From a virus (lineage: Duplodnaviria; Caudoviricetes), in the IMG/VR virus record IMGVR_UViG_3300028588_000039, positions 1 to 43,579 of that record: a stretch of DNA of 43,579 nt; one strand, 5' to 3'. A model generated the notes under the pieces. The model had not been told where the DNA came from. It was given only the letters and a program-made list of their open reading frames with translations, and searched no databases. Below, in pieces: positions 3,865 to 24,656 of the stretch (the stretch's first letter is position 1; the number at the start of each line of letters is the position of its first letter). A program made the translations under genes and the position numbers.

Positions 3865-5673
3865 TCACGCAACTGCTCCCGGCATCGTCAACGCCATCGC
3901 CACGTTTCGCACCCAGATCGGTGTCGCGCTCAACACGAACGTCTCGCCAGACCACGCCAGTAGCAGCGTCGTGCCCATCACTTCCGCGATCGCGGTCGCA
4001 GCTGCCGGCGGCACCAGGTTGCCGATGTGCTCGCGCCACACGCTGTCGCTCATCCCGTCCAGCAGCAGGTGCTCCTCGGGCTCGATCAGGCTCTGCAGCG
4101 CGGCCAGCTCGAGCGTGGTGAGCGGGCGGTGCCAGGTGCCGTCGAGCGCGCGGATGATGGCGATGGTCTTCTGGTCCGGCGCCGGCAACGCATCGATGCG
4201 CGGATCAGCGACCGACCACCGGCCGTTATCCTGGCGTGCGGACGCGCTGACAGCACCGCTCGGCGAATCCCAGGGCACCACACCATAGTGGCCGCCGGTC
4301 AGGTAGGCATCGCCCTGCTTACGCGTATTCAAGCTGGTGCGAGGGTCAGCAACGGCAAAGGCGCCTTGGCCTGTTGTGCTGGCGGCGATCTCGGTACCTG
4401 CGGCCTGGTCGAACGGCGTGACCTGGTACTTGCCGGCGCCGTCGAAGCTGCTGGTCGACCGCGGGTCCTGCACGGCGAACATTCCCTGCCCTGGACTCTT
4501 CACGTTGATCACCGCGCCCATCGTCTCGTCCCAGCCGCACAGGCCATACTGGCCGCAGTCGTACTTGCCCGGGTCGAAGCGCGGGTCCGCGACGCACTGG
4601 CCGGTTCCGTGCGCACCAGAGACCACGCGTGCAGCCTCCTCCCAGCCGCCGACGCGCAGCTCGTTGCTGTGCTTGGCCGGCCCCATGTGACGTGGATCGG
4701 CTACTGAGAACGCACCATTGCTCGGGCCAGCGCGACCGGACACTACGCCCATGTGCTCGTCCCAGCGGTTCACGCCCAAGTAGTCGGAGCGGTATTCCGG
4801 AACGATCAGGTAATCGCGTAGGTGGCCATTCTCTACCGCCAGCTTGTTCAGCGAACGCCAGTCACTGCCAGCCTCGACGAAAGCCAGGCGCACCCACGTC
4901 TTCCACTGCAGGCGCGGGATGCGGTGCATCGGGCCGGCCGCCTCATCGCCCGGGAATGGCATGCGGCCGAGCACATCGCCCACGGGGCGCAGACGCTTCT
5001 TCTCTGGCTCGTACAGGAACGGCGGTACCTTCTCGGCGTGGCGCGCCACCAGGAGGAAGCGCTTGCGCGATTGCGCCAGGCCGCCCAGCTCGCCGCAGTC
5101 GTGCGTCGTCTCGGCGACGGCGTAGCCGTAGCGCTGCAACACCTGATTGATCTGGTCCAGCAAGTGCCGGCCGCGCGTGGCCAGCCGCGGCACGTTCTCG
5201 AACACGATCAGGTCGACCGGATCGTCGGCCCAGGCCTCGGCCATCAGCCAGATGCAGCGCAGGGTCAGCTCGTTCAGGGCCTGGTACTTCGGCGTCAGGC
5301 TCATCGTCTCGGACAGCAGACCGGAGGCGCCCTTGCACGGACTGCTGATGAACACGATGTTCGGCCGCTCGTTGCCGGCGGCGCGCCGGATGTCGGCCGG
5401 GCCCATCTCGCGCCAGTCCGCCGGCGGCTCCTTACCGTGGAAGGCGACGTACTGGCCGCGGCTGAACAGGTCCATCACGGTACCTGGCACGCCGACGATC
5501 CGGTTGAAGTCACGGATGGCCGAGGGCGAGACATCGACGCCGCCCAGGCAGCGGAAGCGCGCGGACATGGTTCCGACACGCGGATTCGCCTTGTTGAAGC
5601 CCTTGGCGCCGCCGCCGATGCCGCAGCAGAAGTGAAAGTGCTTGATCTCTTGGGTGTGGGTATCGCGGGGCAT
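3865..5673 (-). CDS. DNA (cytosine-5)-methyltransferase with repeated variable region
   Basis: Motif I HFCCGIGG, motif IV SSPCKG, motif VI FENVP, motif VIII QSRKR, motif X IGNLVPP. Confidence 0.92.
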   Translation of the reverse strand: MPRDTHTQEIKHFHFCCGIGGGAKGFNKANPRVGTMSARFRCLGGVDVSPSAIRDFNRIVGVPGTVMDLFSRGQYVAFHGKEPPADWREMGPADIRRAAGNERPNIVFISSPCKGASGLLSETMSLTPKYQALNELTLRCIWLMAEAWADDPVDLIVFENVPRLATRGRHLLDQINQVLQRYGYAVAETTHDCGELGGLAQSRKRFLLVARHAEKVPPFLYEPEKKRLRPVGDVLGRMPFPGDEAAGPMHRIPRLQWKTWVRLAFVEAGSDWRSLNKLAVENGHLRDYLIVPEYRSDYLGVNRWDEHMGVVSGRAGPSNGAFSVADPRHMGPAKHSNELRVGGWEEAARVVSGAHGTGQCVADPRFDPGKYDCGQYGLCGWDETMGAVINVKSPGQGMFAVQDPRSTSSFDGAGKYQVTPFDQAAGTEIAASTTGQGAFAVADPRTSLNTRKQGDAYLTGGHYGVVPWDSPSGAVSASARQDNGRWSVADPRIDALPAPDQKTIAIIRALDGTWHRPLTTLELAALQSLIEPEEHLLLDGMSDSVWREHIGNLVPPAAATAIAEVMGTTLLLAWSGETFVLSATPIWVRNVAMALTMPGAVA

Positions 5674-5675
5674 TC

Positions 5676-6101
5676 TTATTTTCCTAATGGTTTTGCATAG
5701 CCGGCGCACGGCGCCGACGTGGTGATGAGGTCGACCCGCGCCGGCCCGAAAAACGCCACGTCCTGCGGGTGCCGCTGCATCCCGATCTGGCGCGCCGGCA
5801 CTACCTTGGCGCCGCTAAACGCATTGCCGCGCTCTTTCTTGTCCGGCGGCGCACCATCGCTACCCAGGCGCCAAATCTGCCGGTTGAACGGCCCACGCTC
5901 TTCCGAGCGGCAGACTTCGCCCATTTCGGCCAGGTAGTTCAGGTAGCGGCACACGGTGCTGTCGGTCAGGCTAAGCTCGGCCATGAGCTCGGCCACGGTG
6001 CGCGGCTTCTCGGCCAGCAGCGCGAGGATGCTGTCGCAGGCGCGCTCGCGCGCCGCGATTCTGTCGGTGGTGGACTGGCCACTGGTAGGTTTCTTCGTCA
6101 T
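5676..6101 (-). CDS. Winged-HTH DNA-binding protein
   Basis: ILALLAEKPRTVAELMAELSLTDSTVCRYLNYLAEMGEV; ATGA-coupled start at 6101. Confidence 0.75.
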   Translation of the reverse strand: MTKKPTSGQSTTDRIAARERACDSILALLAEKPRTVAELMAELSLTDSTVCRYLNYLAEMGEVCRSEERGPFNRQIWRLGSDGAPPDKKERGNAFSGAKVVPARQIGMQRHPQDVAFFGPARVDLITTSAPCAGYAKPLGK

Positions 6102-11797: not shown

Positions 11798-12175
11798 CTA
11801 CCGCTTGGCGGGCGCGGCAACTGAAGGCGGTGCAGCTTGGGCAGGCGCCGTCCCAGCAGCAGAGGCAGGCTCAACAGAGGGTCTTACGTAATCTTTCAGC
11901 ATTGGGAGCAGCTGAGCAAGGAAGATCGCCGCAACGACCCACATGACAATGCTGGTTTTTGCATCGGAAACTTCCTTGCCGGTAGCATAATTCGAACGCA
12001 TAACAGCCACATCGCGCTCGATGTTGACGACGCGCTCGACGGTCTTCTCGACCAGGCCTTCCAGTTTTTTGACTCTTTCTTCCATACTCGGATCATCCGG
12101 TGGTCCGCCAGAGTTGTCAACCGGCGTTCTCGGCCCCCTCCTCCAGTGACCATGATCGTCAACAACCCGACTCAT
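11798..12175 (-). CDS. Coiled-coil protein with C-terminal TM helix (moron)
   Basis: GGPPDDPSMEERVKKLE...NYAT...IVMWVVAAIFLAQLL. Confidence 0.7.
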   Translation of the reverse strand: MSRVVDDHGHWRRGPRTPVDNSGGPPDDPSMEERVKKLEGLVEKTVERVVNIERDVAVMRSNYATGKEVSDAKTSIVMWVVAAIFLAQLLPMLKDYVRPSVEPASAAGTAPAQAAPPSVAAPAKR

Positions 12176-12486
12176 GCTTTCTCCTTGTTCAAAAAATAAG
12201 TTAGCATCCTGCTAACATTATAGTGTCTTTGATAACCGCAATTAATACAGGAAAGTATTACGGTAACAAGGGCGCCACCCCGGTCGTAATTTACTCCAAC
12301 ACCCTCAACTACAGTTGCGGCGCGTTGAGCAAAATAGCCGACATCATGATTTCCCGTACCTCGCTCAATATAGTGCTGCTGCTCACCACACGACGGGCAT
12401 ACGGGAGTAATCTTTTTTGCGGTTAGGTACTCAACAACTTCCTCATACTCCAATTGCCGTAGCGGCGGCAAATCTGAAACAGCCAT
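12172..12486 (-). CDS. Zinc-ribbon protein (moron)
   Basis: CPSCG ... CINCG; AT-richer; ATGA-coupled to next gene. Confidence 0.75.
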   Translation of the reverse strand: MAVSDLPPLRQLEYEEVVEYLTAKKITPVCPSCGEQQHYIERGTGNHDVGYFAQRAATVVEGVGVNYDRGGALVTVILSCINCGYQRHYNVSRMLTYFLNKEKA

Positions 12487-12544
12487 ATATTCTCACTCAC
12501 TTCAGGGTAACTTTAATTAATCCGCGCCGCGAGCGGGGATTATT

Positions 12545-12898
12545 TTAGAATGCGTGCGGCGTCGTGGTAATTGTAGACTGCGGTGCTGGCTGCGGCTTCA
12601 ATCCGAATTGAGGAGCCTGCAGCGGCTGAATTTGCTGAGTTGGCTGAGCTGGTCGAATTGGCTGAACGGGCTGCAGTCCATATCCCTGCGGCTCTGGATT
12701 CTTTGTGCCAGTTTCCCCTGTGTAAGGATTGATATTTCCCTTCGTACTGTAGTTGTCTGCCGTCGTGCTATTGGGTGAACTGCGCATGTGGGGCGCTACG
12801 TAGGTGCCGTTGCTTTTCGTGTAGCCATTTACGTAAACCTGGGCGTATGCGCCGGAGGCGACCGCAGCAAGCAATGCGGCAGCAAAGATCTTTTTCAT
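12545..12898 (-). CDS. Secreted protein (moron)
   Basis: Signal peptide MKKIFAAALLAAVASGAYA; YVNGYTKSNGTYVAPHMRS...NYSTKGNINPYTG domain; P/Q-rich tail. Confidence 0.8.
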   Translation of the reverse strand: MKKIFAAALLAAVASGAYAQVYVNGYTKSNGTYVAPHMRSSPNSTTADNYSTKGNINPYTGETGTKNPEPQGYGLQPVQPIRPAQPTQQIQPLQAPQFGLKPQPAPQSTITTTPHAF

Positions 12899-12961
12899 TT
12901 TTCTCTCTCATAGCCGGCATGACGGCGTGCCGTGGCGCCTCCGCTCACGGCAAGCGGATTC

Positions 12962-12990
12962 TTGTAAACCGTTGAAATGCCATGTAAAGT
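12962..12990 (+). promoter_or_regulatory. Candidate sigma70 promoter for an antisense RNA
   Basis: TTGTAA-17-TAAAGT; predicted +1 lies at the start of an 11-bp hairpin. Confidence 0.5.
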
Positions 12991-12996
12991 TCAGCA

Positions 12997-13477
12997 CTGA
13001 CGGGTCGGCGTATACCGACCCGTCAAGCTCAGGTCACAAGCGACCGATTTGATGCAGCACAAAGAGCAGTCCGGATACCGCGTGGATGCACTTCGCTACA
13101 TCGATCGACCACTTCACCTGTGTTGCTTTCGTCAGTTTCAACATGGCAATGAGCCCTATTTACGCTGGCGTGCACGCCGGCTGATTAGGTCGGCATTTGT
13201 ATCGCGCCTTGCCAGGCGCTAGCCGGTGCAGCTGCAGCTGCGTTGGCACCACACTTGGGCTCGGGCATCCGACCTTGCCTGGGTGTGATTGAGCTTGAAG
13301 CAATTCCGATGGCCGAGTCTATGGGCTAGCATTTGCGGGGCATCCACCCCGCCCGGCTCGACGGTCGCATAGACCGGCTTTCGTTATCACTTCGCACCAC
13401 ATGCGGGTTAGCGGCCCGCAGTCCGGGAGCTACCCCGGATTCTTTGCTCCCGTGCCGTCATGGGCGGGAGCGCTTTC
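12997..13477 (+). ncRNA. Candidate ~480-nt structured RNA
   Basis: Upstream promoter, many hairpins with G-U pairs favouring the plus strand, terminal GCTCCCG/CGGGAGC hairpin followed by GCTTTCTT. Confidence 0.4.
13034..13144 (-). CDS. 36-aa hydrophobic peptide (candidate type I toxin)
   Basis: MLKLTKATQVKWSIDVAKCIHAVSGLLFVLHQIGRL*; below the ORF-track size cutoff. Confidence 0.45.
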   Translation of the reverse strand: MLKLTKATQVKWSIDVAKCIHAVSGLLFVLHQIGRL

Positions 13478-14314
13478 TTAAATATCGGTTTTTTTGTAAA
13501 TCGCTCCAGTCTGCCTATTAAATATCCAGACTTGAACAAGTTTCATAATAAGAAGATCACCACTAAACGCCATTTCATTCGGGCGGTCAATTGTCGGTTT
13601 CGAATAATCGTGAAATTCCGATAAGTAGGGTTCGTTCAGATTTCCAACAAATATCAGCGCCAAATTACCTTTGGCGGATCGAGCATCATCAGCCGACATT
13701 TCGATAGACTCATCGATATTTTTTATTCCTGACCTTAGTAAGGAGGAATACGTTAGATTCGAAAACGCCACAGCGCAGACATTCCATTGAGAACTGTCAA
13801 CATCAACTTTTTTTCCGTATGCATTGGATGCGACATATGATCGGTTCGATTTTATTTTTTCATTAAGCCTTACAAACCTTAATAGTTCGTTGTTGACCAT
13901 TTTTGTTTGCCCGTCCCAGTGAGCGCGCACGTTTAACACGCCGCGATCCGCATCATAAGTTTCACTCACTCCGGCATACACATCGGAAGCCTGCACAAAC
14001 CCCACCACATCATTAAGCGTCGTAGTACCCACTATTGGCGCGTTGCCAGCCGCGTCCACACGAGCTCTGTATGCAGACGTGGTTTCGAATTCTGATTTCT
14101 GAGGTTTGATTTTGGAGACGGCTTTTGCAAAGCTACGACAGCTATGGCCAATATATTGGGGAGGCAGGGCATCTACCCCCGGATCCAGCGGTGCCAGTGT
14201 ATAAAGTAATTCCTTCTGAGATGCCTTAGGCTGGGAAGCTTTTTTGACGGGAGCAGCAAAGACGGAAGAGGTCCCGGCAATCGCAAGGGTACAAAGGACT
14301 AAAGTAAATTTCAT
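13478..14314 (-). CDS. Exported protein (low-GC moron downstream of cI)
   Basis: Signal peptide MKFTLVLCTLAIAGTSSVFA; KSEFETT motif; start could be 14347. Confidence 0.75.
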   Translation of the reverse strand: MKFTLVLCTLAIAGTSSVFAAPVKKASQPKASQKELLYTLAPLDPGVDALPPQYIGHSCRSFAKAVSKIKPQKSEFETTSAYRARVDAAGNAPIVGTTTLNDVVGFVQASDVYAGVSETYDADRGVLNVRAHWDGQTKMVNNELLRFVRLNEKIKSNRSYVASNAYGKKVDVDSSQWNVCAVAFSNLTYSSLLRSGIKNIDESIEMSADDARSAKGNLALIFVGNLNEPYLSEFHDYSKPTIDRPNEMAFSGDLLIMKLVQVWIFNRQTGAIYKKTDI

Positions 14315-14422
14315 TAGATTTTTCCCATCGACGTCTAAGCGCGCCATATCACCATTCAAAATCTCACAAAAACTCACGCGTCAATCATGTGACACCAGCT
14401 GTTGTCGGACACTGGCGAAAAA

Positions 14423-14700: not shown

Positions 14701-14982
14701 CCGCACCTCATCCCCAGCCTGCTTCAGCAGCGCTTCCATTCGCTGCGCCACCGGGTGACTTTGGTCGACCACGCTGGCCGGCGCTTCAGCGTCATCAAAA
14801 AAGTCGGCAACACGCACCAGTAGTGCCTGGGCGATGTTGCGCAAAACATCCTCGCTTACCCACTGCTTCCCTCGCTCGATCCGCGACAAATTCCCATCGG
14901 TTAGCCCAGCCCTGCCCTCGACCTCGGCCAGCGTCATCTTTTTGGCAATCCGAATTGCCCTGATTTTTTCACCTGCGCTCAT
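14587..14982 (-). CDS. cI: Prophage repressor (XRE HTH, no S24 peptidase domain)
   Basis: KIRAIRIAKKMTLAEVEGRAGLTDGNLSRIERG; divergent from cro; 131 aa only. Confidence 0.88.
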   Translation of the reverse strand: MSAGEKIRAIRIAKKMTLAEVEGRAGLTDGNLSRIERGKQWVSEDVLRNIAQALLVRVADFFDDAEAPASVVDQSHPVAQRMEALLKQAGDEVRLLTVYRLASADDRTVIDAAVDDVIERLDIVGILNKRQ

Positions 14983-14989
14983 GCGTGCG

Positions 14990-15066
14990 ATTGTCGAATT
15001 TTGATGCGCCTCTCGCAAGGCGCATTGCGCATTTCTTATTTCTGATATAAAGTGCGTATTACGCAT
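14990..15066. promoter_or_regulatory. OR region with pRM and pR
   Basis: pRM (minus) TTGCGA 15018-15013, 17 bp, GACAAT 14995-14990; pR (plus) TTGCGC 15025-15030, 17 bp, TAAAGT 15048-15053; operator-like palindromes 15004-15018, 15018-15032, 15052-15066. Confidence 0.75.
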
Positions 15067-15085
15067 CTTAGGAGCCCTTAAAACC

Positions 15086-15325
15086 ATGAAATCGCCTCTC
15101 CGACAAGCTCGCGAAAAGCGCGGCATCACGCTGAATGTTCTTGCTAAAAAAGTTGGCAGCGACGTTGGCAACCTCAGTCGCATCGAGCGCGGGGTCCAGA
15201 CCCCCAATGCCCAGCTGGCCGAGCGAATCTGCCGCGAGTTTGACGGTGAAGTCAGCGAACTGCAGCTCATCTACCCGGCCCGCTACGCCGAGTCTGCTGC
15301 TCAACCCGAATCCCAGCCGCAGTAA
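15086..15325 (+). CDS. cro: Cro-like repressor
   Basis: HTH with GNLSRIERG identical to CI; C-terminal LIYP; AGGAG RBS. Confidence 0.88.
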   Translation: MKSPLRQAREKRGITLNVLAKKVGSDVGNLSRIERGVQTPNAQLAERICREFDGEVSELQLIYPARYAESAAQPESQPQ

Positions 15326-15341
15326 CCGCTGCGGTTTTTTT
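15317..15341 (+). terminator. tR1-like terminator
   Basis: CCGCAG/CTGCGG hairpin followed by T7 at the cro stop. Confidence 0.7.
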
Positions 15342-15433
15342 GTTGCCGAAAAGTTGCAACAGGGCTCTTGCCCAGTACCACCCCGTCGGCTTGCCGACCC
15401 ATCCACGTAACCCGCATCACCCTGGAGAAACAC

Positions 15434-15688
15434 ATGAGCTTGAACCCGAACGTCCGCACCGAAGTGCTGGAAACCCTGCTGAACCCCGCGGAGCTGAGCG
15501 GCTTCACGAACCTTTGCCAGCTGCTCGGCCTGTCGAAGTCCGCAATGAACCGCAGCCTCATCAACAGTGCCGTGCAAACGCATGGTATGGCCAAGCCGGC
15601 CGGCAAGGAATCCCGAGGTTGTCCGGGTCCTGGTCGTCAGGCTTGCCGCGCGCGCGGCGCAAAGGGCGGCGCCCGGAGGCTTCTTTAA
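15434..15688 (+). CDS. Small DNA-binding-like protein at the cII position
   Basis: GGAGA RBS; ribbon-helix-helix-like LCQLLGLSKSAMNRSLI; position after cro. Confidence 0.5.
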   Translation: MSLNPNVRTEVLETLLNPAELSGFTNLCQLLGLSKSAMNRSLINSAVQTHGMAKPAGKESRGCPGPGRQACRARGAKGGARRLL

Positions 15689-15756
15689 TGGCTTCCGACT
15701 GCGACACGAAGCAAAAAAATAGCCCGGTGGAGAGCCGGGCCGAAAGGAATTTGAAC

Positions 15757-15954
15757 GTGAGCACCTTATCACCAAAGCCGGACGCTTCGAAGCTGCTTTC
15801 GATGGCGGACAACGTCGCGGTGCACAACCAGGCCTACAAGCGCGTGCGCTACCTGGGCGCCAAGGCAAGTGAGCGCGCGTACGGCCGCCTCAACAAGAGC
15901 ATCCGGGACCTGACCGAGACGGCCGAGCACCTGCGCAAGGCGGGCGAGCCATGA
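15757..15954 (+). CDS. Hypothetical protein
   Basis: AAAGGA RBS plus GTG; coupled to next gene. Confidence 0.6.
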   Translation: MSTLSPKPDASKLLSMADNVAVHNQAYKRVRYLGAKASERAYGRLNKSIRDLTETAEHLRKAGEP

Positions 15955-16139
15955 CGGAGCCCATCATTTACCGCGCCATGATCCAGTCCAAGGCCCGCGA
16001 GGCATTCGTGCGCGGCGCCGGCCGCGATGACCACGGCTTCAACTGGCACAGCGTCGATGCAATCGCTACCTGGCAGGACGCCTGGGATGCGTGCGCGGCT
16101 GAGGCTGGCCAGCAGCTGGTGGGGAGCAGCCCGCCATGA
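15951..16139 (+). CDS. Hypothetical protein
   Basis: 62 aa, ATGA overlaps on both sides. Confidence 0.65.
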   Translation: MTEPIIYRAMIQSKAREAFVRGAGRDDHGFNWHSVDAIATWQDAWDACAAEAGQQLVGSSPP

Positions 16140-16885
16140 TCCACTACCACGGCTTGCCGATCACCCCGGCCACGGCCGCCGTGCGCGCAATCGGCGGCGG
16201 TCACGCCTTCGTTTCGTTTCCGAACTCCGACCAGTTGACGGTCGCGCTGGAGGTGGCACAGTCGATTGCAGTCGACAACGGCGCCTTCGGCGCTTGGCGT
16301 AGCGGGAAACCAGTGACGAACTGGTGCAGCTACTACGCCTGGGTACAGGAGCTGCACCGCTATCCGCAATTCGACTTTGCAGTCATCCCCGACGTCATCG
16401 ATGGCGACGAGGCCGCCAACGACGCTTTGCTCGCGGAGTGGCCTTGGCACGACCGTGCCGCGCACGTCGGCGCCCCTGTCTGGCACCTGCACGAATCCCT
16501 CGCTCGCCTGGATCGGCTTGTATCCGCGTGGCCGCGTATCTGCCTCGGCAGCTCGGGCGAGTTCGCCAAGATTGGCACTCAAGCTTGGTGGACGCGCATG
16601 GCCCAGGCGATGGATGTCATCTGCGACAAGGATGGCCGCCCAGCTGCAAAGATTCATGGCCTCCGCATGCTAGACCCGGCCATTTATACCCGCTTCCCTT
16701 TCGCAAGTGCCGATAGCACGAACATCGGCCGCAACGTCGGGATCGACAGTGCCTGGCGCGGCACGTACACACCACCGACGAAAGAAGCGCGCGCCGCAAT
16801 CATGCGCGAACGCATCGAATCGCAACAGTCGATGACGTTCTGGATCCGCGAGCTGGCGCCGATCCAACTGGGGATGTTTCCATGA
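16136..16885 (+). CDS. TGT/DpdA-like (guanine transglycosylase fold) protein
   Basis: VDNGAF, IPDVI, PVWH, LGSSG, IHGLRM, SADST in the order of TGT-family motifs. Confidence 0.7.
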   Translation: MIHYHGLPITPATAAVRAIGGGHAFVSFPNSDQLTVALEVAQSIAVDNGAFGAWRSGKPVTNWCSYYAWVQELHRYPQFDFAVIPDVIDGDEAANDALLAEWPWHDRAAHVGAPVWHLHESLARLDRLVSAWPRICLGSSGEFAKIGTQAWWTRMAQAMDVICDKDGRPAAKIHGLRMLDPAIYTRFPFASADSTNIGRNVGIDSAWRGTYTPPTKEARAAIMRERIESQQSMTFWIRELAPIQLGMFP

Positions 16886-17922
16886 AGCCCGCCAACATCA
16901 CCCTGCCGGCGCCGCTGACCCCGATCGACTGCGACCTGCGCGACTTCGCCTTCATGCCGCTCGACGTCGTGCGCCTGCGCGACAGCGACCTGGCCGTCAC
17001 CGCGGAAGCCGACGAGTTCCGCTGCGCCGTGTTGCTGTGGTGCGCATCCTGGCACCAGGTGCCGGCCGCAAGCCTTCCTGACGACGACAAGATCCTGGCC
17101 CAGTACGCCGGCTACGGCCGTGTCGTGAAGGAATGGATCAAGGTCCGCACCGGCGCCCTGCGCGGCTGGGTGAAGTGCGCCGACGGCCGCCTGTATCACC
17201 CTGTCGTCGCCGAAAAGGCGAACGAGGCGTGGCTCGCGAAACTGCGACAGCGCCTGAAAACCGAGTGCGCGCGGATCAAAAAACACAATGAGCGGCACGG
17301 GACAAAGCTGCCTTTCCCTGAGTTCGATGCGTGGCTGGAGGCAGGCTGTCCTGTGGGACAACCGCTATTTGTCCCTAGCGACAAACCGCAGATGTCACCG
17401 GGACAGGATGCAGATGTCACTGGTGAAAAGCAATCCAAGGGACAGGGAGAGGGACAGGGACAGGGACAGTTAACTACTAAATCTAAATCGTCGTCTCAAG
17501 CCTCAACCGAAGTTGGCGTCGGCCAGCAACACGACGACGACGACCAAACCGGAGGGTCGAAACGAGCCACAGCCATTGCTGGCCTGCTGCGCGAAAACAC
17601 CATCGAAGCGCAGCCGAGCGACGGAGTCGTCCAAGCTTGGACGGCCGATGCTCGCGTCACCAGGGAGGTTCTGCTGACGGCGATCGAGAAGGCGCGAAAG
17701 TTCAAGCCGGGCGAGGAAATCGGTCTCGCCTACCTCGACAAGACCGTGCAGACCGTTCTGCAACGGCAGGCTGCGCCGGCGCCAGCAAGCCCAGTTGCCG
17801 CGCCACCAGCACCGCCACGCAAGCCCCAAGGCAACGAGCCGAAGGGCACGGACGAGAGCTACGACGAGTGGCAAGCCCGGGTCGACGCGTTCGAGCGCGC
17901 GCAGCGAGGCCGGGCCGCATGA
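16882..17922 (+). CDS. Replication initiator, DUF1376/YdaU-like
   Basis: DCDLRDFAFMPLDVVRLRDS, LWCASWHQVPAASLPDDD, DGRLYHPVVAEKA; internal iteron-like repeats. Confidence 0.8.
   Translation: MKPANITLPAPLTPIDCDLRDFAFMPLDVVRLRDSDLAVTAEADEFRCAVLLWCASWHQVPAASLPDDDKILAQYAGYGRVVKEWIKVRTGALRGWVKCADGRLYHPVVAEKANEAWLAKLRQRLKTECARIKKHNERHGTKLPFPEFDAWLEAGCPVGQPLFVPSDKPQMSPGQDADVTGEKQSKGQGEGQGQGQLTTKSKSSSQASTEVGVGQQHDDDDQTGGSKRATAIAGLLRENTIEAQPSDGVVQAWTADARVTREVLLTAIEKARKFKPGEEIGLAYLDKTVQTVLQRQAAPAPASPVAAPPAPPRKPQGNEPKGTDESYDEWQARVDAFERAQRGRAA
17299..17490. repeat. Candidate replication origin (iterons) within initiator gene
   Basis: GGGACA at 17299, 17355, 17400, 17439, 17451, 17457, 17463, inverted copy at 17370; GCAGATGTCAC twice; short AT-rich run after. 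Confidence 0.55.
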
Positions 17923-19978: not shown

Positions 19979-20481
19979 CCGAACGCCGCATCACAATCAG
20001 CCTGAACTGGCGCCCAGCCGGCGCACCAGCGCGGCGCCACGACGACTTCGCTGAGGTTCCTTATACTCGGCCGCAGCCGCAGCGCCGGGCTGCGCCAGAG
20101 CACCCTGACACTGGCGACATCGACCAGCGCCTGCAGAATTGGGGCCGCTGGGCCAACTCCGACTACCGGCGCATCAACCGCACTGCCACGGCAGTATTCT
20201 GCGACCGCCTGCGCCGTGAGGCCGGCCTACAGGAATCGCACAGCGACGAGCGCCGCCGGCTGGACGACGACGACGCCTACCGCATCGAACTGGGCCTGCA
20301 CCCGCTGCGCGGCACGCAAAAGCGCATTCTGCGCCTGCACTACGTCGACGGCCGCGCCTGGCAGGCGATCATGCGCGTGCTGCAATTCCCGATCCGGCGG
20401 GATCTGTTCGACAGCCTGCTGCTCAACGCCCAGGTCGCGATAGAATCTGTGGTCGACAACCACATGGAGATACAAAGGTGA
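19975..20481 (+). CDS. Antiterminator Q-like protein, copy 2
   Basis: RLQNWGRWA...DAYRIELGL..L...QKRILRLHYV...IMRVL; TTG start coupled to copy 1. Confidence 0.65.
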   Translation: MTERRITISLNWRPAGAPARRHDDFAEVPYTRPQPQRRAAPEHPDTGDIDQRLQNWGRWANSDYRRINRTATAVFCDRLRREAGLQESHSDERRRLDDDDAYRIELGLHPLRGTQKRILRLHYVDGRAWQAIMRVLQFPIRRDLFDSLLLNAQVAIESVVDNHMEIQR

Positions 20482-20807
20482 CTGCCTCAAATATTCCAAT
20501 GCCTAACAGCACTCAGCATCGCCTCATCCTTGCAGCCTCCAAGGCCGCTGGACTGACCCCAAGCTACGATGTGCAACGCGGATTTATGCTTGATTCCATG
20601 ACGCCGTGGAACCCATTGGAAAGCTCGGGAGACGCGCTTCTAATCGCTGAAAAGCTCATCATGTCGTTCCAGGTCGACCGACGTGGCGCAAAGGCATGGC
20701 TCGGTGAAGATGTTGTTGAAGAAAACAACCCCGGGCGTACGTTCTACGCCGATCTCCGCCTGGCTATCGTCCGTCTTGCAGCGAAATGGTATGAGGCAGA
20801 TGAATGA
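20478..20807 (+). CDS. Phage nin-region protein (WNPL..GDA motif), copy 1
   Basis: PWNPLESSGDALLIAEKL ... RLAIVRLAA. Confidence 0.7.
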   Translation: MTASNIPMPNSTQHRLILAASKAAGLTPSYDVQRGFMLDSMTPWNPLESSGDALLIAEKLIMSFQVDRRGAKAWLGEDVVEENNPGRTFYADLRLAIVRLAAKWYEADE

Positions 20808-21226
20808 ATGATACCGTTCCGAGCGCTTGCCTTGGTGGCATTGACCAGGAGGAGGACGACCTGGACGAGCTGCCGGCGCGCCAGCCCCAGGTGATCCCGG
20901 CCGCCGATCGCGAGCTGCTCGAGCTGGCCGGGCGCGCACTCGGCGCTGTGCGGGTCGAAGACGTTGAAGGTGAGCACTGGGTGAACCTGCGCTTCGCCAA
21001 CGGCACGGTCGCGCACGGCTGGAACCCACTGTTGTTCTACGGCGATACGTTCGAGTTGGCTGCGGCGCTGGAACTGGACATCATGCACCGGGTCGTTGGT
21101 GGTCGCCGCGTCGAGGTCCTGGGTGCCGGAGGTCGGTTGACCGTGGAACGCTACGAGCACGACCGTCTGCCCGCAGCTGCCCGCGCCGTCACGCGCGCAG
21201 CTGCCGAGATTGGCAATCAAAAATGA
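20804..21226 (+). CDS. Phage nin-region protein (WNPL..GD motif), copy 2
   Basis: DRELLELAGRALG, GWNPLLFYGDTFELAAAL, RAVTRAAAEIG. Confidence 0.75.
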   Translation: MNDTVPSACLGGIDQEEDDLDELPARQPQVIPAADRELLELAGRALGAVRVEDVEGEHWVNLRFANGTVAHGWNPLLFYGDTFELAAALELDIMHRVVGGRRVEVLGAGGRLTVERYEHDRLPAAARAVTRAAAEIGNQK

Positions 21227-24020: not shown

Positions 24021-24656
24021 ATGGCCAGAGCGAAGACTCCACCTGCGATCGCGCGCCCTCTTCCGCCGGCAAGCATGGTCGACCCGCTGAGCGCCCGGTA
24101 CCACCCGGCGCCTGACGTGCTGAAGTGGGTTCGCGCCGAGATACTGTCGGACGACGGCCGCCTCCACAATCCCGACCACGCGCACCTCGATCACTGCGAC
24201 GTCAAGTTCCTGTGGGCGCCGGGCAGCTTCCAGAAGCAAGGGCGCACGGTGCTGGGCCTGTGCGAGGAAATGCTGTTTCGCTGCGGGCCATGGCAAAAAG
24301 GCCGCCAGCAACAGCAGATGGCCGACTGGTTCGGCATGGTGCCGGACTTCCTGATCACGCTGGACGCCGATTACTGCCTCCGATGCAGCGACGCCGAGTT
24401 CTGCGCCCTGGTCGAGCACGAGCTTTACCACATCGCGCAGGAGAAGGATGAGTTCGGCGCCCCAGTATTCACCAAGGATGGCCTGCCGAAGTTCTGCATG
24501 CGCGCACACGATGTCGAGGAGTTCATTGGTGTGGTTCGCCGATACGGACCGAGTGCCGATGTGCAGCGCCTGATCGACGCCGCGAAGACTGCGCCCGAGG
24601 TGGCGAAACTCAACATTGCGAGGGCTTGCGGAACCTGTCTGCTGAAGGTGGCATAG
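24021..24656 (+). CDS. Phage putative metallopeptidase
   Basis: LVEHELYH zinc motif, HDVEEF; lies before the small terminase. Confidence 0.85.
   Translation: MARAKTPPAIARPLPPASMVDPLSARYHPAPDVLKWVRAEILSDDGRLHNPDHAHLDHCDVKFLWAPGSFQKQGRTVLGLCEEMLFRCGPWQKGRQQQQMADWFGMVPDFLITLDADYCLRCSDAEFCALVEHELYHIAQEKDEFGAPVFTKDGLPKFCMRAHDVEEFIGVVRRYGPSADVQRLIDAAKTAPEVAKLNIARACGTCLLKVA

Follow-up and report, generated by a model that had tools for sequence, protein, structure and literature searches.

Background

DpdA proteins, guanine transglycosylases of the TGT superfamily, are encoded by bacteria as well as by phages. In the bacterial enzyme Asp95 has been described as the acid/base and Asp256 as the nucleophile, and a structural zinc site is mentioned (PMC10164549); the modification level reached by bacterial DpdA lies below 0.1% (Cui 2023, 10.1101/2023.04.13.536721). 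For phage DpdA1 a conserved histidine at 'position 196' has been pointed out, and in phage CAjan about 32% of G is replaced by dPreQ0 (PMC6884629).

The largest group of the 2019 survey, group 3 of Hutinet et al., comprises 76 phages with DpdA alone (PMC6884629); the family treated here was thus catalogued with the DpdA-only phages in 2019 and is not new. Virion DNA of Salmonella phage 7-11 contains 50 dADG per 10^6 nt (PMC6884629) and that of Pantoea phage MED16 354 dADG together with 3 dPreQ0 per 10^6 nt (PMC8306585), which places dADG at 0.02-0.13% of G, near the level of bacterial DpdA. Of the restriction enzymes tried on MED16 DNA all but two, which Dam methylation blocked, cut it; dADG had no effect, and the same paper leaves the benefit and the mechanism of dADG open and describes the host as unsequenced (PMC8306585). 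As far as these two reports go, no knockout or expression test ties dADG to the gene in MED16 or 7-11 (PMC6884629, PMC8306585). Since the levels are close to that of bacterial DpdA and the MED16 host is unsequenced, the dADG of both phages may also stem from a Dpd system of the host.

In this work we have analysed a dpdA gene of a temperate phage, found in the virus record IMGVR_UViG_3300028588_000039; the stretch of 43,579 bases analysed is referred to below as the window. A sequence-only reading of the window had taken the gene product for an orphan TGT/DpdA-like enzyme coupled to the replication initiator. For comparison 160 related loci (given here by L numbers) were fetched, 156 of them with an intact frame, and these together with the window fall into 108 groups at 90% identity.

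Results

The window is one virus record, 69% complete, whose end lies inside the tape-measure gene. Pfam and PHROG profile scans revealed the gene set of a lambdoid prophage (integrase, C5 methyltransferase, RecE-like nuclease, repressor, cro, replication protein, NinG, Q, terminase, and head and tail genes). The segment 14587..15336 holds the repressor on the minus strand, a cro-like gene on the plus strand (HTH_3 matches) and, 3' of cro, a terminator-like site at 15315-15336 that is a consensus match only. The dpdA gene sits after this region in the rightward early operon, where ATGA, GTGA or TTGA overlaps were found at all nine junctions checked; no sigma-70-like promoter was found at 14900-17000. 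The upstream ORF of 62 aa (15951..16139, plus strand) has no Pfam or PHROG family match, and it is ruled out as the mini QueF-like partner of the family (see below), whose profile it does not match.

Elsewhere in the window, a C5 cytosine methyltransferase without a clamp-like tail is encoded in the leftward operon (3865-5709, minus strand). Accessory ORFs left of the repressor (11798-14377, minus strand) include one for a 299-aa PHROG 13753 protein that begins like a signal peptide and one for a secreted-looking protein of 117 aa, and two tandem paralogous PHROG 5086 ORFs follow the Q-like gene (20478-21226, plus strand). The ORF at 24021-24656 (plus strand) is a 'transposase' according to PHROG 513 and a putative phage metallopeptidase according to Pfam PF18894.

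The dpdA gene (16136..16885, plus strand) is an intact frame of 249 aa, with the motifs DNGAF, PDVI, PVWH, GSSG, HGL and SADST in the reported order, at residues 47, 85, 114, 138, 174 and 191; a second HGL lies at residue 5. Its product, a compact member of the DpdA family of guanine transglycosylases, matches PHROG 887 (E 3e-69), a profile labelled 'queuine tRNA-ribosyltransferase'. Pfam has no family for the protein, TGT and DpdA models match 0/108 relatives at E 0.1, and sequence searches of the PDB with the protein returned chance matches or nothing. The CAjan DpdA query matches the window gene by tblastn at E 5e-9, and hhalign of the family profile against CAjan DpdA gave a probability of 96.9 (E 1.9e-10, 150 columns), pairing D47, H117, G138, H174 and D193 with identical residues.

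The family is large: it takes in 6722 of the 8000 clusters scored, and 106 of 50,697 phage records match at E 1e-5, including BTP1, SfI and SEN1. Its members occur in the known temperate phages BTP1, SfI and HK106, the protein of coliphage HK106 being 33% identical to that of the window. Pairwise, MED16 gp38 is 40% identical over 247 aa (E 2e-55) and 7-11 gp32 36% over 227 aa (E 2e-39); both are distant, long-branch members without the C-terminal tail discussed below. Residues D86, H117, G138, S139, H174-R177, S191, D193 and T195 are invariant in all 108 aligned relatives, and D47 is kept in 107, so that both putative catalytic aspartates are intact.

A structure model built on few aligned sequences (pLDDT 80) gave tied barrel matches at Z 6.7 and no Foldseek match at E 0.001. 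The model from the wider, 108-sequence alignment reached pLDDT 94 and pTM 0.91, and when it was compared with 48,161 chains by VIA-align the top four were all of the TGT superfamily, with Z 13.9-15.4. Archaeal TGT (arcTGT; Z 15.4, rmsd 4.5, 231 aligned) and Cap10 (Z 15.4, rmsd 4.0, 233 aligned) tie for first place, followed by bacterial TGT (Z 13.9, rmsd 3.3, 214 aligned) and bacterial DpdA (Z 13.9, rmsd 3.2, 213 aligned). The best unrelated barrel scores Z 13.1, which is a modest margin, but the ranking agrees with the CAjan profile match, and the protein is predicted to have a TGT-type TIM barrel. The TGT/DpdA identity proposed earlier is upheld by both comparisons.

Two aspartates form the putative active site. 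Asp47 of DNGAF (16274..16276, plus strand) aligns with CAjan DSGAF and would be the general acid/base; Asp193 of SADST (16712..16714, plus strand) aligns with CAjan SCDSS and would be the nucleophile. Their roles are equated here, by analogy, with those of Asp95 and Asp256 in bacterial DpdA. The zinc site of tRNA TGTs and bacterial DpdA has the pattern CxCxxC, and this structural motif is present in 0/108 family members. The invariant H117 pairs with a CAjan histidine, which may be the 'position 196' residue of PMC6884629.

The claim that the window has no folE, queC, queD or queE held up as well. CAjan QueC, QueD, FolE and YhhQ queries found no tblastn match in the 43.6-kb window, no QueE was found among 43 window ORFs scanned against Pfam and PHROG, and profiles of the family's own partner genes had no match in the window. 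Because the record is 69% complete, this absence applies to the part covered, which includes the whole early region. In all three hosts of close relatives QueC scored over the cut-off, one of the matches being partial.

Among the relatives, a mini QueF-like, YhhQ-like or QueD-like neighbour is present in 74 of the 160 loci; these counts come from profiles built from the same loci, so that their members match by construction. The commonest neighbour is an 80-aa protein (PHROG 37496) found in 49/160 loci and 33 groups, mostly adjacent to dpdA; its gene (e.g. L004:4759-5004) usually overlaps dpdA, either upstream or downstream. Cys-Pro and two Glu residues are invariant in it; QueF-L is the best match in the PDB (E 0.2) and QueF the nearest named Atlas cluster (0.87). 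The Asp that follows the Cys in QueF is mostly missing, and the likeness of this protein to QueF and QueF-L, as judged by its sequence, is a lead only. A Vut_1/YhhQ-like transporter is encoded in 17/160 loci. It is about 160 aa long and its gene is coupled to dpdA (L076:3144-3629; L166, Acinetobacter phage AB3P2), sometimes together with the small QueF-like gene. QueD-like proteins, found in 11/160 loci (e.g. L118:1076-1465, L027:4603-5004), keep HGH, but all 10 examined are without the Cys of CxxxHGH; a DpdL-like role or a different one is possible for them. L098 is the sole one of the 160 loci with FolE- and QueD-like matches to the CAjan queries. Neighbours that handle 7-deazaguanine point to a 7-deazaguanine substrate. 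All three types are absent from the window, MED16 and 7-11, and the mini QueF-like protein is therefore an unlikely maker of dADG in the latter two.

The stop codon of dpdA overlaps, in the ATGA noted earlier, the start at 16882 of a DUF1376 replication (initiator-type) gene (16882..17922, plus strand; PF07120, E 2e-8; PHROG 22470, E 2e-52). Such an overlap is ordinary, because the nine operon junctions checked overlap likewise, and the coupling to the initiator that had been deduced from it did not survive comparison in either direction. Downstream ORFs were available, by crude ORF calling, for 103 of the 107 other groups, and a gene of initiator type by PHROGs follows dpdA in two representatives (L010, L126); of three further loci picked by hand, two (L084, L137) likewise have one next. 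Conversely, among the top 80 relatives of the initiator in the window, dpdA is never the gene immediately upstream; in one (L241) it lies within 3 kb upstream, four of the 80 loci having under 800 bp of upstream sequence. The DUF1376 initiator is a neighbour and not a conserved partner. In L241 dpdA is followed by a PAPS-reductase-like gene and this in turn by the initiator. In BTP1 the dpdA family gene lies in the leftward ea region.

In the closest phage, L167, whose initiator is 97% identical, a D12 Dam-like methyltransferase begins at the same ATGA, has the same flanks and ends with the same QLGMFP codons as the window DpdA. The left border of the swapped segment, where the upstream ORF ends and the gene begins with ATGA (16102..16139, plus strand), matches L167 by blastn at 89% over 38 nt. 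Forty-five ORFs from the corresponding position at the 80 initiator loci were scanned, near-duplicates and short or doubtful calls having been left out; 14/45 are DNA methyltransferases and 4/45 PAPS-reductase-like, so at least 14 of the 80 initiators have a methyltransferase in this place. The occupants in L167-L246 are Dam-like, N6/N4 and C5 methyltransferases or PAPS-reductase-like genes. By these alignments, the position before the initiator is a slot of the early operon in which DNA-modifying genes replace one another. The exchange with methyltransferases speaks against a partnership with the initiator and, if indirectly, in favour of DNA as the enzyme's substrate, and a place in the early operon implies expression at the time of replication without such a partnership.

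The window protein ends in IQLGMFP, in which QLGMF (residues 244-248; 16865..16879, plus strand) is a predicted beta-clamp (DnaN) binding motif. The bacterial clamp-binding consensus has been given as QL(S/D)LF, a motif that tolerates change and often stands at the C-terminus (PMC9690074; Mu C protein, 10.1101/2025.01.04.631326). The prediction draws on enrichment, synonymous variation, the junction common to L167 and a complex model. A strict Q-x-x-[LM]-F occurs within the last 12 aa in 24/108 groups against a shuffle mean of 1.1 (maximum 5, n=1000), and in 0/258 neighbouring genes and 0/108 interior windows. A broad form of the motif occurs in 70/108 groups, against 12.6 in shuffles (maximum 23) and 2/258 neighbouring genes, and 75 of the 120 closest database proteins have the motif in their last 15 residues. 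These counts are not independent, because the strict motif clusters in the subclade to which the window belongs, where it is found in 14 of 18 rows, with 11 further cases scattered over the tree (FastTree, tail left out). The methyltransferases of the slot often end alike, in QLGMF, in QQRMF or with x-L-F near the end.

The 25 strict cases, counted in the last 15 residues, comprise 18 different peptides whose codons vary synonymously, and five of them have no tightly coupled next gene. A Shine-Dalgarno-like core occurs in nine of the 25 motif stretches and is absent from 16. A mere ribosome-binding site for the next gene is insufficient to explain the tail, given the absence of the motif from 258 neighbours, the synonymous codons and the 16 stretches without such a core. 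The CAjan DpdA (L164:3827-4747) ends in MELF, and its gene lies two genes upstream of that phage's annotated polymerase processivity factor.

In the structure model the tail is the lower-confidence part. Residues 212-249 modelled with the DnaN of a relative's host gave a complex score of 0.59, with 0.00 for the best control; at least 86% of contacts recur between runs, and the partner pLDDT is at least 53. The pass mark is reached by 116/157 solved pairs and 2/215 mismatched pairs, and passes at 0.60 or under comprise 18 of the 157 solved complexes plus both passing mismatches. The pass may also reflect the predictor's memory of solved structures, among which clamp-peptide complexes are well represented, and the modelled complex lends weak support to clamp binding. 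No clamp gene was found in the window, so the host clamp would be meant. Taking these lines together, we lean slightly towards the QLGMF tail binding the host beta clamp as a tether. Our literature searches found no report of a clamp motif in a DpdA. A comparable claim, for T4 glucosyltransferase and gp45, was not reproduced (10.64898/2025.12.06.692756), and replication-associated plasmid methyltransferases are described as partners of Pol I (PMC7736820). The modification of replicating DNA put forward in the sequence-only reading thus loses the initiator as its route, and the predicted clamp-binding tail keeps the idea alive.

Discussion

We consider it probable that this DpdA-family enzyme exchanges guanine in DNA for a 7-deazaguanine base made by the host; DNA as the substrate and the host as the supplier of the base are what we infer from the evidence above. 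Of the earlier proposal of host preQ0, preQ1 or another base, the host-made 7-deazaguanine is supported, and the two named bases are not what the two analysed relatives carry, which is dADG.

On induction, the early operon would yield the enzyme alongside the replication proteins, and the enzyme would dock through its QLGMF tail on host clamps at new DNA. Asp193 would attack the sugar and break the glycosidic bond of guanine, Asp47 serving as acid/base, and the enzyme would then take up the host 7-deazaguanine base. By analogy with MED16 and 7-11, dADG would be the likeliest product. The amide could arise without DpdC if free ADG were inserted, or if inserted preQ0 were hydrated afterwards. 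ADG is an intermediate of the QueC reaction, and its direct insertion would explain dADG in phages without DpdC.

The alternative that survives best is that an enzyme with the TGT fold has a target other than phage DNA: tRNA, or a deazaguanine, free or on protein as for Cap10, which it would bind or consume to blunt defence, while the dADG of MED16 and 7-11 would be the work of host Dpd systems. Cap10 and arcTGT do head the fold search, dADG is the product of DpdC and occurs in the relatives at a level resembling that of bacterial DpdA, and MED16 DNA has no restriction benefit. We nevertheless regard this as unlikely, since the two catalytic aspartates are conserved, phage DNA enzymes are the closest characterised relatives by sequence, DNA methyltransferases take the place of the gene in its slot, and the protein ends in a clamp-like tail. 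The precursor importer beside 17/160 loci also fits use of a base better than its removal.

A dependence of the enzyme on the transporter or on the small QueF-like partner, which would make copies lacking them (the window's included) weak or idle remnants, is distinctly improbable. It would account for the mini QueF-like gene in 49/160 loci, mostly adjacent and absent from the window, and for the trace modification in MED16 and 7-11, which have no partner. Yet 17 of the 18 rows of the window's subclade are without a partner in the sequence covered and keep all catalytic residues and mostly the tail; the window frame is intact, and related clusters are counted in thousands (6722 of 8000 scored).

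We give very little credence to a glycosylase-like activity that would take out a base, such as a modification placed by the host, and insert none. Base excision is the first half of the TGT mechanism (PMC10164549) and the window is without biosynthesis genes, but neighbours that import or process 7-deazaguanine, and dADG in relatives, point to insertion. Joint action with the phage initiator, e.g. in marking the origin, is very improbable and as a family trait already largely refuted, since the ATGA overlap in the window and the initiator-type genes next in L010, L084, L126 and L137 are set against 2/103 group representatives, 0/80 initiators directly downstream of the gene (1/80 within 3 kb), the same overlap type at 9/9 junctions and the leftward ea position in BTP1.

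Exchange of DNA guanine for a host-made base, the reading that we prefer, would probably benefit the phage as counter-defence. The sole test in the group, restriction of MED16 DNA, showed no benefit and gives the anti-restriction role, cited by the sequence-only reading for phage DpdA paralogues, no support in this group. It is possible, if on balance doubtful, that a widespread clade of clamp-riding DpdAs of temperate phages writes host-derived 7-amido-7-deazaguanine into fresh DNA as a one-gene system, swappable with clamp-tailed methyltransferases. Modification might then be far denser than the traces in MED16 and 7-11, whose enzymes have no tail, and might proceed by direct insertion of ADG.

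Two points are new here, both for a temperate phage that has no clamp of its own: a DNA methyltransferase gene replaces dpdA exactly, and the clamp-like tail of the protein is conserved. If the clamp tether is true, a lone enzyme would have a route to replicating DNA that dispenses with the DpdB ATPase; should the tail fail to bind, the protein is an ordinary member of the catalogued DpdA-only group.

Comparison with known systems

The closest described proteins are those of DpdA-only phages (MED16 gp38, 7-11 gp32, SEN1 gp38, SW9 gp39; cluster DpdA/TGT_1, PMC8306585), which share 36-42% identity over nearly the full length and the same motifs. Like them, the window gene has no preQ0 genes nearby; preQ0/G+ biosynthesis genes were not found in the 43.6 kb covered of a record that is 69% complete. 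The window gene differs in its temperate lambdoid setting, in the Q-x-x-L/M-F tail of its product, which the MED16 and 7-11 proteins are without, and in belonging to a separate subclade. With the phage DpdA1 of CAjan and 9g the protein has the predicted TGT barrel in common and 25-27% identity in the matched part, but it is about 57 aa shorter and comes without a FolE/QueD/QueE/QueC cluster.

The bacterial DpdA of S. Montevideo (PDB 7ui4), which acts with DpdB and DpdC, shares the fold (Z 13.9) and presumably the two-aspartate mechanism, and dADG is the end product in the relatives MED16 and 7-11 as in the bacterial Dpd system. Unlike the bacterial enzyme, with its 413 residues and zinc site, the window protein has 249 residues, and its family is without the Zn motif in 108/108 members; no DpdB- or DpdC-like genes stood out among the recurrent family neighbours scanned. 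Cap10 of type IV CBASS (PDB 9ntn) has a TGT-family fold in common with the protein (Z 15.4) at 8% identity, and it binds a deazaguanylated protein according to the title of that entry; no CBASS-type genes were found among the same recurrent neighbours. Finally, the window DpdA, predicted here to be a clamp binder, has a terminal peptide of the Q-x-x-[LM]-F type in common with beta-clamp clients (PMC9690074), among them the C protein of phage Mu.
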